Source: Escherichia phage nataliec
Sequence record: MN850611.1
Reading direction: 5' to 3' (one strand)
DNA length: 64,000 nucleotides
Below the pieces are notes generated by a model. The model was given only the letters and a program-made list of their open reading frames with translations, did no database searches and was not told where the DNA came from. The number at the start of each line of letters is the position of its first letter. Position 1 is the stretch's first letter. The position numbers were made by a program, and so were the translations under genes. Of the stretch, positions 26,006-31,350 are shown one piece after another.

Positions 26006-26082
26006 CTCTGTTTAGCTCAGCTTGGTAGAGCGTTCCGTTTGGGGCGGTAAGGCCGGAGGTTCAAGTCCTCCAACAGAGACCA
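26006..26082 (+). tRNA. tRNA-Pro (anticodon UGG), CCA encoded
   Basis: Hand fold: acceptor ctctgtt/aacagag, D stem gctc/gagc, anticodon loop tTTGGgg, T arm ggagg-ttcaagt-cctcc. Confidence 0.65.
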
Positions 26083-26099
26083 AATTTAAAGGGGTTACT

Positions 26100-26456
26100 A
26101 TGAGATTTTTAAAAGAATGTCCAGTTCATGGTTTAACTGAACATAGCATTCATAAGAATGGTAACGCCGGTAATAGAGTAAATTGTCTAAAATGTTGTGC
26201 ATTAAGGACAAAACTTAGAGAGAATGCCAATAGAGAGAAAGCATATAAGCTTTATGGCGATAGCTGCAAAATTTGTGGCTATAATAAATGTAAAAATGCT
26301 TTAGAATGGCATCACCTTAACCCAAACGAAAAAGAGAATACACCATCAAAACTTATGGGTGCATCTTGGGAAAAGGTTAAAAAAGAACTTGATAAATGTG
26401 TTTTGCTATGTGCTAATTGCCACAGAGAGGTTCATAGCGGAATTACAATGATTTAA
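26100..26456 (+). CDS. HNH homing endonuclease
   Basis: Motifs WHHLNP and CANCHREVH; ORF track start 26022 overlaps tRNA-Pro, so ATG at 26100 (RBS aaagggg) is preferred. Confidence 0.7.
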   Translation: MRFLKECPVHGLTEHSIHKNGNAGNRVNCLKCCALRTKLRENANREKAYKLYGDSCKICGYNKCKNALEWHHLNPNEKENTPSKLMGASWEKVKKELDKCVLLCANCHREVHSGITMI

Positions 26457-26457
26457 T

Positions 26458-26532
26458 GTCGTAGAAGGCAAATGGTTAGCCACCTGACCTTCAATCAGTT
26501 GCTCGCAGGTTCGAATCCTGTCTACGACACCA
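26458..26532 (+). tRNA. tRNA, anticodon ambiguous (loop cCTTCAa, possibly UUC/Glu with C33)
   Basis: Acceptor gtcgtag/ctacgac, T arm gcagg-ttcgaat-cctgt, CCA encoded; anticodon stem has a mismatch. Confidence 0.5.
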
Positions 26533-26538
26533 GTTTTG

Positions 26539-26612
26539 ACAGAAGACCAATTACAGCAAACTTAATCTTATTCATCTGAAGGTAAATCGGACAAAGAAGA
26601 TATTTGGTCTGG
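26539..26612 (+). ncRNA. helix-bracketed structured element 1
   Basis: 5' CAGAAGACCAA pairs with 3' TTGGTCTGG, enclosing about 55 nt; sits between two tRNA genes. Confidence 0.35.
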
Positions 26613-26623
26613 TCATTAAGAAT

Positions 26624-26700
26624 TGCGGGTATAGAGAAAGGGCGTCTCACATGTCTCATTAGCATGGTATCGGCAGGTTCGACTCCTGCACCCGCCTCCA
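26624..26700 (+). tRNA. tRNA-Met or Ile2 (anticodon CAU)
   Basis: Acceptor (t)gcgggt/acccgc(c), anticodon arm catgt-ctCATta-gcatg, T arm gcagg-ttcgact-cctgc, CCA encoded. Confidence 0.6.
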
Positions 26701-26706
26701 AATTTA

Positions 26707-26770
26707 CAGAAGACCGTTTACAGCAATATTTATTAAATTTTTAGCGGAAAAATTGAAAGATACGGTCTGG
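26707..26770 (+). ncRNA. helix-bracketed structured element 2
   Basis: 5' AGAAGACCGTTT pairs with 3' ACGGTCTGG; internal hairpin AATTTTT-agcgg-AAAAATT. Confidence 0.35.
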
Positions 26771-26783
26771 TAATACTAAACAT

Positions 26784-26860
26784 GGTTAGGAAGCACATAA
26801 GGTATGTGCGGTCGCCTGTTAAGCGAATGGCACAGGGTTCGAATCCCTGACTAACCGCCA
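26784..26860 (+). tRNA. tRNA-Asn (anticodon GUU)
   Basis: Acceptor ggttagg/actaacc, D stem gcac/gtgc, loop ctGTTaa, T arm caggg-ttcgaat-ccctg, CCA encoded. Confidence 0.7.
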
Positions 26861-26929
26861 AATTTAGGAGAGAAGCGATTGCTCACCGATTTGTAAGGTG
26901 CAAGTCCTTAGCCTGAATAGAAATTAAAT

Positions 26930-27017
26930 GTGTCGTTATCCCGTAGATGGTAGCGGTGGGGACTGTAAATCCCTTGTCATTGAGACTCGGTAGGTTCGAC
27001 TCCTACACGGCACACCA
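26930..27017 (+). tRNA. tRNA-Tyr (anticodon GUA), class II
   Basis: 88 nt; acceptor gtgtcgt/acggcac, anticodon arm gggga-ctGTAaa-tccct, long variable arm, T arm gtagg-ttcgact-cctac. Confidence 0.7.
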
Positions 27018-27022
27018 ATAAA

Positions 27023-27100
27023 GGTTATGTAGTTTAATTTGGTTAAAATACTCCCCTGTCACGGGAGATGATGAGGGTTCAAATCCCTTCATAACCGCCA
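27023..27100 (+). tRNA. tRNA-Asp (anticodon GUC)
   Basis: Acceptor ggttatg/cataacc, anticodon arm ctccc-ctGTCac-gggag, T arm gaggg-ttcaaat-ccctt. Confidence 0.75.
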
Positions 27101-27161
27101 ATTTTGAGAGGGCTATTTAGCCCCTCCCTTAAAGAGTTCTTACGAGTATTCTTTAAAGGAG

Positions 27162-29332: not shown

Positions 29333-29337
29333 ATTTT

Positions 29338-29413
29338 GCAGGATTAGTTCAAATGGATAGAGCAACAGTCTACGAAGCTGTTAATAGGGGTTCGAATCCC
29401 TTATCCTGCGCCA
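29338..29413 (+). tRNA. tRNA-Arg (anticodon ACG)
   Basis: Acceptor gcaggat/atcctgc, anticodon arm acagt-ctACGaa-gctgt, T arm agggg-ttcgaat-ccctt. Confidence 0.8.
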
Positions 29414-29432
29414 ATTTAAAGAGGCTATTTAG

Positions 29433-29990
29433 ATGAGATATTTGAAGTATGCTTCATGGATTTTCTTAGCTTTGTTAGAGCCATTTGCAGCAATCTTAGC
29501 AGTTATCTTAGCACCTTTTGTAGTTCCATTCTACAGTGAGAAGAAAGGACACTTACCTTTCGGGTTCAGATGGATGGAGACATATGACAACCCAATTGAT
29601 GGTGATGAAGGTCACGTTAAAAGATGGGCTAATATTAGATGGATTGGTAAACTAGGTGTCTACATGCAAAGAGTCGGATGGCTCTGGAGAAACAAAGCTT
29701 ATAACTTCTCTTACCATGTATTAGGAAGAGATGTAAAAGATGTTACTAAGTGGAAAGGTAATATCAACGTAAGTTCTGACCCTGAAGATAATCAGACAGG
29801 TTATCTCCTAATGTGGAACAGTAATGCTTGGGGATTATTCGCTTTTATCCCATCAATTAAAATCTTTGGTAAAAAATTTTACTGGAGAATTTATATTGGA
29901 TGGAAACTAAAAAGTGTTGTCCCAGAAGAAAGAGCATTCTCAAGGGAAAGAGTTATGTTGGCATTCTTTATTCATCCACTGAGAAAGTAA
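29433..29990 (+). CDS. hypothetical membrane protein inside the tRNA array
   Basis: 185 aa; N-terminal TM segment IFLALLEPFAAILAVILAPFVV, Trp-rich; RBS gaggc. Confidence 0.5.
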   Translation: MRYLKYASWIFLALLEPFAAILAVILAPFVVPFYSEKKGHLPFGFRWMETYDNPIDGDEGHVKRWANIRWIGKLGVYMQRVGWLWRNKAYNFSYHVLGRDVKDVTKWKGNINVSSDPEDNQTGYLLMWNSNAWGLFAFIPSIKIFGKKFYWRIYIGWKLKSVVPEERAFSRERVMLAFFIHPLRK

Positions 29991-29998
29991 AGATTTAA

Positions 29999-30074
29999 AG
30001 GGGATTAGTTTACAAGGTTAAAACCTCGGTCTTTGAAATCGAAGAAGTTGGTTCAATTCCAACATCCCCCGCCA
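29999..30074 (+). tRNA. tRNA-Gln (anticodon UUG)
   Basis: Acceptor (a)ggggat/atccccc with a 1:72 mismatch, anticodon arm tcggt-ctTTGaa-atcga, T arm gttgg-ttcaatt-ccaac. Confidence 0.65.
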
Positions 30075-30076
30075 AT

Positions 30077-30155
30077 GCTCCATTACTCCAATTGGCAGAG
30101 AGGCCAGACTTAAAATCTGTGTTATGTATCGGTTCGAATCCGATATGGAGTACCA
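30077..30155 (+). tRNA. tRNA with anticodon UAA (Leu by anticodon), 7-nt variable loop
   Basis: Acceptor gctccat/atggagt, anticodon arm ccaga-ctTAAaa-tctgt, T arm atcgg-ttcgaat-ccgat. Confidence 0.55.
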
Positions 30156-30160
30156 AATTT

Positions 30161-30236
30161 AGCGGTATAGCATAACTGGCAATGCAGCAGTCTCTGAAGC
30201 TGTCTTATTAAGGTTCAAATCCTTATGCCGCTGCCA
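30161..30236 (+). tRNA. tRNA-Gln (anticodon CUG)
   Basis: A1-U72, D stem gcat/atgc, anticodon arm gcagt-ctCTGaa-gctgt, T arm taagg-ttcaaat-cctta. Confidence 0.7.
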
Positions 30237-30267
30237 CTTCTAAGGATTCTTACGAGAGTCCTTAAAT

Positions 30268-30343
30268 GTGGCCTTATCATAAATGGTAATGACCCATGCT
30301 GTGAACATGGTCTATACGGGTTCAAATCCCGTAGGTCACCCCA
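30268..30343 (+). tRNA. tRNA-His (anticodon GUG)
   Basis: Acceptor gtggcct/aggtcac, discriminator C, anticodon arm ccatg-ctGTGaa-catgg, T arm acggg-ttcaaat-cccgt. Confidence 0.75.
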
Positions 30344-30349
30344 ATTTAT

Positions 30350-30425
30350 AGTCCAAGTAGCTTATATGGTTAAAGCGCGTGTCTGAAAAACATGAGAAGA
30401 GGGTTCAAATCCCACTGGACTACCA
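30350..30425 (+). tRNA. tRNA-Phe (anticodon GAA)
   Basis: Acceptor agtccaa/ctggact, anticodon arm cgtgt-ctGAAaa-acatg, T loop ttcaaat. Confidence 0.6.
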
Positions 30426-30441
30426 ATTTCAAAGGTGCTTA

Positions 30442-31176
30442 ATGAAAGAGATGACAGAACAAGGTAAGGAGATTTTTAATCTCTTAAAAACTGGTAAAGG
30501 GTTTTCTAACCCCCTTATTACTGGTGCAGCAGTTCTCGGTGGAACCGTAGCTGCCTCTACATCACTTGTAAGCTCTATTAGTTCTGTATCAGACCCTACA
30601 GTAAAAGATAAGCTTGTTGCTGCTGGACTTACAACAGTTCTGCTTAACAGCTTTACCACGAGTCTGAAAAGCACTACATCAACTACCAAAACACTGACAG
30701 ATTACGGTCAAAAGTCCATTGATGAGTTTTCATCACGTATGCAGGTAGCAAAAGGTTATTCTAATGTTATGGGTGCAGCAGGTGAACAAGTTGGCTGTAC
30801 ACCATTTAGTGGTATTATGGGTGTTGCTACAGAGTATGGTCAAAAAGCTATTGATACGATTAACAGTGCACTAGACGGTGTTAATGATGTATTAAGTGAT
30901 TTACAAGACGCTATTGACAAAGGTCTTGATACTATTTCTGATTTAGCTAACCAAGCTGTTAGTAAGATTAATGAAGGTATCTCGAAGATTACAGCTTATG
31001 CAGATGAAGTTGTGCAGATGATTGAAGCAGAAGCTGCCCTTATTGCAGAGTACCTTAAAACGAATATCAATGGGTTCTTAGCAGGTATCTTACCAGACTG
31101 GTTTGATGATGCTTGTAAAACTGGTGTAATTGACACTATTGCAACACCAGAAATGAAGAACGCATTACAGAAATAA
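30442..31176 (+). CDS. hypothetical Ser/Thr-rich protein
   Basis: ORF track start 30379 overlaps tRNA-Phe; ATG at 30442 with RBS aaaggtg preferred. Confidence 0.45.
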   Translation: MKEMTEQGKEIFNLLKTGKGFSNPLITGAAVLGGTVAASTSLVSSISSVSDPTVKDKLVAAGLTTVLLNSFTTSLKSTTSTTKTLTDYGQKSIDEFSSRMQVAKGYSNVMGAAGEQVGCTPFSGIMGVATEYGQKAIDTINSALDGVNDVLSDLQDAIDKGLDTISDLANQAVSKINEGISKITAYADEVVQMIEAEAALIAEYLKTNINGFLAGILPDWFDDACKTGVIDTIATPEMKNALQK

Positions 31177-31275
31177 TGGAAGATTAACCCTAAAAGGTAA
31201 GGGAGCAGTTTGCTAAACTGCCAGTAGCTGAGAAATCGGTGTACCAGTTCAAGTCTGGTATCTTCCTCCAATTTG

Positions 31276-31350
31276 AATCCGTGACAGAAATGGCTATGTG
31301 CCTGTCTGCAAAACAGGTTTATAAGGGTTCGAGTCCCTTCGGATTCTCCA
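31276..31350 (+). tRNA. tRNA-Cys (anticodon GCA)
   Basis: Clean cloverleaf: acceptor gaatccg/cggattc, anticodon arm cctgt-ctGCAaa-acagg, T arm aaggg-ttcgagt-ccctt, CCA encoded. Confidence 0.8.

Follow-up and report, generated by a model that had tools for sequence, protein, structure and literature searches.

The long variable arm of class II transfer RNAs (tRNAs) is used by the seryl- and tyrosyl-tRNA synthetases (SerRS and TyrRS) and ignored by the bacterial leucyl-tRNA synthetase (LeuRS). Leucine tRNAs with a short arm are already documented in animal mitochondria and in Streptomyces coelicolor, and those of phages are routinely annotated just as tRNA-Leu. Other departures from the standard tRNA include the D-armless tRNA-Ser(AGY) of mitochondria and the circularly permuted or split tRNA genes of the red alga Cyanidioschyzon and of Nanoarchaeum. 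The subject of this work is the tRNA cluster in a 64,000-nucleotide (nt) stretch of the Escherichia phage nataliec genome (record MN850611.1), the whole of which is referred to below as the window. Five genes of this cluster, coding for three tRNA-Leu, one tRNA-Arg(UCU) and one tRNA-Trp(CCA), have a non-standard shape, and in our judgement they are quite probably working tRNAs that serve translation and are kept by selection. All five had been flagged in a first-pass annotation made by hand folding. Beyond that annotation, the analysis places 28011-28092 in a large phage-only Arg(UCU) family, identifies 28236-28318 as a tRNA-Trp and shows that T5-like and other phages share the short-Leu trait.

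26006-31350, + strand: the whole tRNA cluster, consisting of 24 tRNAs called by ARAGORN, tRNA-Glu(UUC), the atypical tRNA-Arg(UCU) and the atypical tRNA-Trp(CCA)

The region 26000-31400 shares 97% identity with Salmonella phage Meda and 96.6% with Felix O1, and 353 phage records match it; this similarity marks it as the tRNA cluster of a myovirus of the Felix O1 type (Ounavirinae, Felixounavirus). The synteny of the cluster is shared with both phages, and the Meda record annotates the same genes including the three tRNA-Leu. The tRNAs were detected with ARAGORN and with the Rfam tRNA model (RF00005) at an Rfam threshold of 29 bits. Together the 27 genes, counting those for Glu, Arg and Trp that are outside the ARAGORN calls, cover all 20 amino acids. 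Most of the other cluster tRNAs score 51-67 bits against the Rfam model, whereas the Leu genes reach 44-47 bits, Arg 31.7 and Trp less than the threshold.

Leucine tRNAs with short variable loops

28677-28754, + strand: tRNA-Leu(UAG), 78 nt including CCA (ARAGORN; Rfam 44.5 bits)
29255-29332, + strand: tRNA-Leu(CAA), 78 nt including CCA (ARAGORN; Rfam 44.0 bits; alignments)
30077-30155, + strand: tRNA-Leu(UAA), 79 nt including CCA (ARAGORN; Rfam 47.5 bits)
26930-27017, + strand: tRNA-Tyr(GUA), class II, 88 nt (ARAGORN; internal comparator)
28332-28421, + strand: tRNA-Ser(UGA), class II, 90 nt (ARAGORN; internal comparator)
31178-31270, + strand: tRNA-Ser(GCU), class II, 93 nt (ARAGORN; internal comparator)

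The first-pass annotation had read the three leucine genes as tRNAs with short variable loops and the length of class I, had taken the Tyr and Ser tRNAs of the cluster for ordinary class II molecules, and had named ARAGORN as a check. ARAGORN and Rfam agree on the coordinates and on the anticodons UAG, CAA and UAA; ARAGORN gives lengths of 78, 78 and 79 nt, in which the encoded CCA is counted, with loops of 4-7 nt and no extra stem, and finds neither differing leucine anticodons nor long leucine variable arms. For Tyr and Ser it draws long variable arms (88, 90 and 93 nt). A variable region of more than 10 nt forming a stem-loop, which defines class II, is thus absent from the three tRNA-Leu of the window, and the long arm is present in the Tyr and Ser tRNAs of the window, in E. 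coli leuZ and in tRNA-Leu of three other phages.

The tRNA-Leu(UAG) has the variable loop (U)GUUU, A73, G1.U72 and the D loop AAUUGGUAA. Its D stem is irregular, with three bases (one extra) between the acceptor and D stems and one C.U mismatch. In the other two genes the D loop cAAUUGGcAGA (11 nt) is combined with a Leu-specific 3-bp D stem: tRNA-Leu(CAA) possesses the stem UCC/GGA, the 11-nt D loop CAAUUGGCAGA, the 6-nt variable loop AUUAGU with U48 as its last base and A73, and tRNA-Leu(UAA) possesses the stem CUC/GAG, the D loop CAAUUGGCAGA, the 7-nt variable loop GUUAUGU, likewise ending with U48, and A73.

An alignment of 15 tRNA-Leu was made, including E. coli leuZ (87 nt) and the class II tRNA-Leu of three other phages (86-89 nt). 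U8, G18, G19, U48 and A73-CCA are invariant in 15/15 of these sequences, and at least 90% have A15; the sole systematic difference between the short and the class II molecules is a missing variable stem-loop of 11-12 nt. Covariation was assessed on 13 distinct short tRNA-Leu from Felixounavirus, Mooglevirus, Erwinia, Pectobacterium, T5-like and metagenomic phages. Their consensus fold is a class I cloverleaf in which two-sided substitutions keep the pairing at 18/20 pairs, and A73 is found in 13/13. To judge from these substitutions, the short tRNA-Leu are under selection as tRNAs and are not decayed genes.

The trait was found in phages of several groups. At least 99% identity to tRNA-Leu(UAA) is shown by 215 phage records, and tRNA-Leu(UAG) has homologs of the same length in T5-like, Pectobacterium and Mooglevirus phages, their anticodon stems differing by compensatory changes. 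Erwinia phage phiEa104 carries three short tRNA-Leu, Pectobacterium phage Wc4-1 one short (UAG) and one long (UAA), and the T5-like phage OSYSP (MF402939.1) two, both 77 nt long with the variable loop GUUUU (ARAGORN, 15.8-kb tRNA region). Over 78 phage and related sources, 24 distinct tRNA-Leu are short (76-79 nt) and 16 are long (83-89 nt), and in the same sources the long form is kept in 31/32 tRNA-Ser and 16/16 tRNA-Tyr. In these data the short-arm trait extends well beyond nataliec and is specific to leucine rather than to Ser or Tyr. Such a contrast between isotypes fits a LeuRS that ignores the arm, SerRS and TyrRS using theirs.

According to the published set, leucine identity in E. coli consists of A73, the A15-U48 pair, G18G19 with A20a and the D/T-loop tertiary contacts, and the sequence and fold of the long arm are irrelevant to it, arm-less minimal variants still being charged (PMC9976931). 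The tertiary-core part of this set is seen in all three window genes, with the D loop cAAUUGGcAGA or AAUUGGUAA and with U48 directly before the T stem. A73 is present in the three window genes as well as in 15/15 aligned tRNA-Leu, and the anticodons are all of the leucine type NAG/NAA. As far as determinants can be read from nucleotides, the phage tRNA-Leu bear all of those in the published E. coli LeuRS set. The interpretation offered in the first-pass annotation therefore holds in part: its hand folds were correct, as was its reading of the tRNAs as structurally unusual, but the implied trouble with charging by the host LeuRS is not supported, since the identity elements are all in the three genes and the long arm is not used by E. 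coli LeuRS (PMC9976931).

Two further observations bear on function. According to a 2026 preprint, a phage tRNA-Leu taken from MF402939.1 (OSYSP) and supplied with a CGA anticodon reads TCG as leucine in recoded E. coli (PMC13596443). Since both tRNA-Leu detected in OSYSP are short, the one used in the recoded strain was probably of class I length. Moreover, Leu genes identical to those of the window are carried by the Felix O1-like phages REP7, REP8 and REP10, and REP7 is named among the REP phages infecting the tRNA-deleted strain Syn61-delta-3, which implies that the cluster is expressed. From the kept identity elements and, by analogy, from the working OSYSP-derived tRNA, we infer that host charging of the short tRNA-Leu is probably normal.

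Several points weigh against this picture. The D stem of tRNA-Leu(UAG) is irregular; the length assigned to the OSYSP-derived tRNA rests on a 15.8-kb tRNA region scanned out of a 110.9-kb genome; and the survey of 78 sources is biased, the loci having been collected via the atypical Arg gene described below. In addition, the natural type I tRNA-Leu(CAA) of Streptomyces coelicolor is not charged by E. coli LeuRS (PMC6614811), so a short arm or the overall shape alone is no guarantee of acceptance by LeuRS.

It is reasonable to propose that the short tRNA-Leu have lost the long arm and kept the elements that an E. coli-type LeuRS is reported to read, which would allow the host LeuRS to leucylate them. 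They would then supply decoders for the UUA, UUG and CUN codons, which are heavily used by the phage: over 68 long open reading frames (ORFs) of the window, UUA makes up 29%, CUU 27% and CUA 12% of leucine codons, and the G+C content of the phage is 39%. This pattern of leucine codons differs from that of E. coli. Only leucine tRNAs would be free to lose the arm, given that bacterial LeuRS disregards it and that SerRS and TyrRS each make use of theirs. A literature search for accounts of class I or arm-less phage tRNA-Leu found none, its incomplete coverage making this weak evidence of novelty.

The tRNA-Arg(UCU) family and the tRNA-Trp(CCA)

28011-28092, + strand: non-canonical tRNA-Arg(UCU), 79 nt plus CCA (Rfam 31.7 bits with the D arm deleted; covarying family of 34 members)
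28236-28318, + strand: tRNA-Trp(CCA) with an enlarged 16-nt D loop (read from sequence; fold; homolog comparison)

The gene at 28011-28092 was rightly singled out as atypical in the first-pass annotation: ARAGORN does not call it, and the Rfam match deletes the D arm and inserts about 20 nt in the variable region. From its 5' end it consists of the acceptor stem CGGGGCG/CGCCUCG, the dinucleotide UA, the segment UCUCA and a perfect anticodon arm, GCGGU-CUUCUAA-ACCGC, which is followed by the 23-nt segment CGUUAACCGAGUAAGUGGAGUAU, the T arm GCGGG-UUCGAGU-CCUGC, A73 and CCA. The canonical D arm is missing, with the 5 nt UCUCA standing where an arm with 3-4 bp is expected and where the Rfam alignment places its deletion.

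Homologs with 83-89% identity are found in unrelated groups, namely the jumbo phages 7t3 and PBECO4, Vequintavirinae and Stephanstirmvirinae, where GenBank labels them as tRNA-Arg, as tRNA-TERM or not at all. A pattern scan of IMG/VR returned 62 loci with 43 distinct hits, of which 34 have the full architecture; the pool of IMG/VR, window and GenBank loci comprises 34 distinct members, every one 79 nt long. Among these members the acceptor stem (7 bp) is paired in 98.7% of cells with 6/7 pairs covarying, the anticodon stem (5 bp) in 100% with 5/5 covarying and the T stem (5 bp) in 98.8% with 3/5 covarying. For the family, 94.5% of cells are paired compared with 68.5% after shuffling, and two-sided changes are seen in 14 pairs and 178 cells. 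The covariation score of 0.688 compares with 0.176 for shuffles (0/500 reach it) and with at most 0.154 for slid partners.

Apart from the stems, G7-UAUCUCA, CUUCUAA, UUAA, GAGUAA and GGAGUAUG are invariant in the family. As the search pattern did not include the 3' core, the conservation of that part is an independent observation. The determinants of arginyl-tRNA synthetase (ArgRS) C35 and U/G36 are supplied by the anticodon UCU in 34/34 members. The GGA at G48 G49 A50 is also invariant, its equivalence to G18 G19 A20 hinging on the fold model. Such a comparative pattern is the mark of a functional tRNA whose tertiary core is under strong constraint.

In representative genomes from 185,579 species of bacteria and archaea the family has two matches, both on 36-41 kb contigs of metagenome-assembled genomes, and on this count it is essentially restricted to phages. 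A literature search for a D-armless phage tRNA-Arg family, with incomplete coverage, found none, and this family is the part of the present material most likely to be undescribed.

As to its role, AGA is the commonest arginine codon of the phage (44%), and according to ARAGORN the cluster is without any other UCU tRNA. In the same cluster slot, the Mooglevirus phages Sf13 and Michonne, Erwinia phage phiEa104 and Pectobacterium phage Wc4-1 have a normal tRNA-Arg(UCU) of 75-77 nt. All five of the tRNA-rich loci without the atypical gene (5/5) have a normal tRNA-Arg(UCU), and only 1/24 of those with the atypical gene has the normal one as well; one ARAGORN 'tct' call is the atypical gene itself. 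We read 28011-28092 as the putative AGA decoder of the phage, usually replacing the normal tRNA-Arg(UCU). In its acceptor and T arms it hardly differs from the T5-type tRNA-Arg(UCU), which suggests descent from the latter. When smaller loci are included, two of them, L042 and L067, hold both forms, which counts against strict interchangeability of the atypical and normal tRNA-Arg(UCU).

How the molecule folds without a D arm can be modelled in two ways. In the model that we tentatively prefer, the core would be rewired: UCUC-A before the anticodon arm would take the role of positions 22-26 and pair with GAG on the 3' side of that arm (C11-G42, U12-A41, C13-G40), GAGU would stand for positions 10-13, AAnUGGAG would be the D-loop equivalent providing A14, A15, G18, G19 and the ArgRS determinant A20, and the final UAU would provide U48, the core being re-threaded with the usual tertiary partners all there. 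The model is favoured because the canonical T loop needs a GG partner, for which G48G49 followed by A is the only invariant candidate. Three observations tell against it. The CUC/GAG helix is invariant and thus beyond the reach of a covariation test, RNAalifold favours a 3-bp hairpin between columns 38-40 and 47-49, backed by one-sided transitions only, and the fold of the single sequence is no more stable than that of shuffled ones (z = +0.28).

The other model, which we consider rather unlikely, takes the tRNA to be truly D-armless, like animal mitochondrial tRNA-Ser(AGY), with the hairpin Y38-G49, C39-G48, G40-U47 in the variable region propping the core. This hairpin is drawn both by RNAalifold and by the single-sequence fold, and the variation in its six columns (C/U opposite G, U/C opposite G) is all compatible with pairing, but it consists of one-sided transitions alone. 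Besides, the hairpin pairs G48G49 and leaves the T loop (UUCGARU) without a GG partner, and the model gives no account of the invariant UCUCA or of the GGA resembling G18 G19 A20, both of which have a place in the rewired core.

The gene at 28236-28318, too, proved as atypical as the hand fold had suggested. It is not called by ARAGORN, and in Rfam it scores highest against the tRNA-Sec model, with 23 bits, which is less than the threshold. It nevertheless has a perfect 7-bp acceptor stem, AUGGGAC/GUCCCAU, with A1-U72, followed by G73 and CCA, and a T arm with one A.C mismatch. G8 and A9 precede a D stem UGUU/AGCA around a 16-nt loop; the anticodon stem ACGGC/ACCGU contains a C31.A39 mismatch, the anticodon loop is CUCCAAA and the variable loop has 5 nt. 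The acceptor stem, a hairpin in the anticodon region and a hairpin in the T region all appear in the minimum-energy fold. The gene was missed by the gene finders owing to the enlarged D loop.

This gene is conserved in Felixounavirus, in Mooglevirus (Sf13, Michonne) and in Pectobacterium phage Wc4-1, with the CCA anticodon kept. In the Sf13, Michonne and Wc4-1 homologs compensatory changes have turned the anticodon stem into UAAGC/ACUUA and the T-stem pair 50-64 from G-C into U-A, and the D loops have 16-18 nt. The C31.A39 mismatch recurs in Erwinia phage phiEa104, whose tRNA-Trp is otherwise normal. CCA, G73 and A1-U72 are kept in the Felixounavirus and Mooglevirus homologs, G1.U72 being found in some relatives; A1-U72 is a feature of E. 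coli tRNA-Trp (PMC9976931). On these nucleotide marks 28236-28318 is a tRNA-Trp with E. coli-type identity. A calling of the two atypical genes as pseudogenes had been named in the first-pass annotation as an outcome that would speak against it; both behave as conserved genes, though some GenBank records label them tRNA-OTHER, tRNA-TERM or Pseudo.

Other RNA elements of the cluster

27778-28010, + strand: tag RNA resembling transfer-messenger RNA (tmRNA), with its promoter (promoter, tag frame, Rfam/ARAGORN, homologs)
27248-27387, + strand: unit with a circularly permuted tRNA-like element, core 27304-27355 (sequence, fold, covariation)
26539-26617, 26706-26776, 27161-27238 and 27248-27387, + strand: four paralogous units, hairpins of the form ACAGAAGACC-nn-UUACAGCAA...nn-GGUCUGG between tRNA genes
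27123-27160, 27971-28005 and 30233-30270, + strand: repeated hairpins with the loop UUCUUACGAG or UUUCUAAGAGAG, type CUUUAAAG...CUUUAAAG
26458-26532, + strand: tRNA-Glu(UUC), Rfam 55.4 bits, no ARAGORN call

Directly upstream of the atypical Arg gene there is a sigma-70-type promoter at 27778-27806 (TTGACA, a 17-nt spacing, TATAGT), with the predicted RNA start UAGUUUUCGU at 27812-27821. A tag frame at 27856-27888, preceded by AUAAAU, reads GCA AAC GAC AAU GUU UUU CUG GCA GUA GCU UGA (ANDNVFLAVA*). As in tmRNA tags, it begins with a resume-type GCA codon, has no start codon and ends with a hydrophobic C terminus of the ...AA type. The stop codons are in a hairpin loop, followed by a pseudoknot-like element at 27903-27936 and hairpins at 27944-28005. 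In Erwinia phage phiEa104 the tag is ANDAQFLAVA, where four codons differ synonymously only, the stop codon is swapped and the pseudoknot has compensatory changes.

An IMG/VR scan for this tag RNA gave at least 120 loci, and among the matches listed there are 94 distinct tag units with 18 tag variants, each exactly 10 codons long, showing synonymous substitutions and covarying helices. Homologs occur in N4-like phages, Ackermannviridae and Klebsiella phages (at least five phage families), in lambdoid prophages and on plasmids, those of lambdoid prophages being located between the antiterminator (Q-like) gene and the holin gene. A captured host ssrA was considered and rejected: in a distant BLAST search only 338/5,426 E. 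coli genomes contain the element, which lies there in prophages and plasmids and is therefore not chromosomal ssrA.

A tRNA-like domain belonging to the tag RNA was sought with ARAGORN, Rfam and a scan for T-arm motifs but not found; these yielded only ordinary tRNAs nearby and, in the lambdoid versions, internal T-arm-like hairpins. In Rfam the tmRNA scores of the tag RNA, 16-31 bits, stay below the threshold of 47, and ARAGORN finds no tmRNA. Since the promoter sets the 5' end at UAGUUUUCGU, there is no room for an acceptor strand, and the alanine-accepting domain (G3.U70, T arm, CCA) is missing. The atypical Arg gene was first suspected of being that alanyl domain, its window copy having G3.U70 and A73 and lying directly 3' of the tag RNA (27812-28010), but the idea is hardly credible and was dropped, because position 3-70 is not conserved (G-C in 15, G-U in 8 and A-U in 5 of 34 members), the UCU anticodon arm is conserved and covaries, and the two elements separate in other phages, where the tag RNA precedes a normal tRNA-Arg, a tRNA-Leu or no tRNA and the atypical Arg gene is found without a detected adjoining tag RNA match. 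Nothing specific on a phage tmRNA-like tag RNA was found in a literature search of incomplete coverage.

Several further RNA elements lie near tag RNAs. In Erwinia phage phiEa104 (locus L009, about 4794-4965), an unannotated RNA of about 170 nt, with the acceptor stem GGGUGAU/AUCACUC followed by G-CCA, a T arm and a very long interior, is situated directly upstream of the tag RNA promoter of that phage. Lambdoid tag RNAs (E. coli prophage locus L076, 2330-2740; L081 and L082) are flanked by repeated long hairpins CACAACAGGUAAGAGCAUU...AAUGCUCUUUCCGUUGUG, some of which enclose T-arm-like hairpins such as GCGG-UUCGACU-CCGC. The N4-like phage ShWW44 (locus L075, 575-646) has an odd 72-nt tRNA-like gene about 95 nt upstream of its tag RNA, which ARAGORN calls tRNA-Ala(CGC) and which has a non-purine at position 37 and no encoded CCA.

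The permuted tRNA-like element has the order T arm (GAAGG-UUCGAUU-CCUUC), 3' acceptor strand (ACUCGGC), A-GAU, 5' acceptor strand (GUCGAGU) and D arm (GUGU-AAUGGUA-GCAC), the unit being closed by the outer helix AGACCGUU/AACGGUCU. Its acceptor stem covaries over three phages (ACACGUU/GGCGUGU in Sf13, ACCCUUC/GAAGGGU in Michonne), and in Michonne G-CCA follows the 3' acceptor strand. The element sits within one of the four ACAGAAGACC...GGUCUGG units, whose closing helix covaries between copies (AA/UU, GU/AC, GUU/AAC). That these units are HDV-like (hepatitis delta virus-like), theta or other known ribozymes was rejected, with no Rfam match at E-values up to 10. The CUUUAAAG-type hairpins flank tRNAs and the tag RNA, one also being present in phiEa104, and possibly serve as signals for processing or termination.

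An ORF for an HNH homing endonuclease (26100-26456, + strand), annotated as such in Meda, lies between tRNA-Pro and tRNA-Glu. In relatives HNH genes sit elsewhere in the tRNA clusters, which suggests shuffling of tRNA genes driven by the endonuclease.

Origin of the unusual shapes and comparison with known tRNAs

Why these shapes were selected can be viewed in two ways. On the neutral view, the leucine arm would have been lost simply as nothing selects for it. On the adaptive view, which we regard as unlikely, the shapes would be adaptations that escape tRNA-directed nucleases or modifiers, belonging to host defence or to the phage's own attack, with recognition by synthetases and the ribosome kept. 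The adaptive view is compatible with the confinement of the Arg family to phages and its horizontal spread over unrelated phage families at 83-89% identity, with an invariant Arg core beside stems that are free to vary and with the coexistence of the atypical and normal Arg genes in two phages. It also agrees with the report that phage tRNAs evolve to avoid tRNA nucleases and that the robustness of a firewall is credited to viral tRNA-Leu (PMC13596443). However, this analysis identified no nuclease that recognises either the variable arm of Leu or the D arm of Arg, the known escape mutations are in anticodon loops, which are ordinary here, and other coliphages keep class II tRNA-Leu (89 and 86 nt). 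In its broadest form the adaptive view would hold that virulent enterobacterial phages keep a private, divergent set of tRNAs (arm-less Leu, core-rewired Arg and large-D-loop Trp) still accepted by the host and perhaps invisible to tRNA-targeting enzymes of defence or attack, a possibility to which we give a low probability; should it hold, the Arg family would represent a new natural tRNA topology working in the bacterial cytoplasm.

It is very improbable that the odd genes are pseudogenes in decay or artefacts from the annotation of a fast-evolving cluster, for although the Leu, Arg and Trp genes have low Rfam scores compared with their neighbours and homologs are labelled tRNA-OTHER, Pseudo, Undet or TERM in some GenBank records, every helix that varies has compensatory substitutions, the anticodons and loops are invariant, the lengths are fixed (79 nt in 34/34 Arg members), hundreds of phage genomes of several families retain the genes and the tRNA set with them covers exactly 20 amino acids, the covariation by itself largely refuting decay.

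If the five genes are working tRNAs, as we think quite probable, phages employ tRNA shapes that are never found in use by their hosts, and the short phage tRNA-Leu are a natural exception that would work with an ordinary E. coli-type LeuRS. The Arg family matters more, being fixed in length, covarying, phage-restricted and without a canonical D arm; since annotation pipelines miss or mislabel it, the main arginine codon AGA (44%) seems to have no phage decoder. The tag RNA without a tRNA-like domain and the permuted element in the same clusters hint at further undescribed manipulation of translation by phages. The findings bear on phage tRNA annotation, on the design of orthogonal or nuclease-resistant tRNAs and on phage counters to tRNA-targeting immunity. 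According to PMC13596443, a phage tRNA-Leu, from a record in which only short ones were detected, is already in use in firewalls of recoded E. coli.

Among known tRNAs, E. coli tRNA-Leu (leuZ, UAA) has in common with the short phage molecules A73, U8, A14/A15, a UUGG D loop with G18G19, a 3-bp D stem, U48 and G1.U72. It differs in length and arm: natural E. coli tRNA-Leu have 85-87 nt with a stem-loop arm, and the phage genes 75-76 nt without CCA and a loop of 4-7 nt. Closer in shape are the tRNA-Leu of T5-like phages (Tequintavirus, e.g. OSYSP, MF402939.1), with a class I length of 77 nt, the Leu-type D loop GAAUUGGCAUA, the variable loop GUUUU and A73; the UAG molecule is 76% identical to the window's gene. 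These phages belong to another family, have two isoacceptors compared with three here, and their D stem is more regular. The type I tRNA-Leu of animal mitochondria and of Streptomyces coelicolor (CAA) are likewise natural molecules with short variable loops and A73 (PMC9976931, PMC6614811), and are charged by a dedicated or specially adapted LeuRS. The phage tRNA-Leu, unlike these, have the E. coli-type D-loop signature and would rely on the unmodified host LeuRS.

In E. coli tRNA-Trp the CCA anticodon is also in the loop CUCCAAA, with G73, a D loop of about 8 nt and U8. Compared with it, the phage tRNA-Trp has a D loop of 16-18 nt, the mismatches C31.A39 and A49.C65, and G8 for U8. The atypical tRNA-Arg(UCU) resembles the conventional ones of T5-like phages, Mooglevirus and phiEa104 in the loop CUUCUAA and in the cluster slot, and its acceptor and T arms are nearly the same as those of the T5 type (CGGGGUG...GCAGGUUCGAAUCCUGUCACCyCGG), but it has UCUCA in place of a 15-nt D arm and 23 nt in place of a 5-nt variable loop. 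With mitochondrial tRNA-Ser(AGY) it shares the lack of a canonical D arm and the reading of an AGN codon, and with permuted or split tRNA genes it would share, in the preferred rewired model, a changed order of core segments. Unlike in permuted tRNAs, its 5' and 3' ends still form the acceptor stem, and it is set apart from both by a full T arm, a 23-nt replacement segment and its setting in the bacterial cytoplasm.

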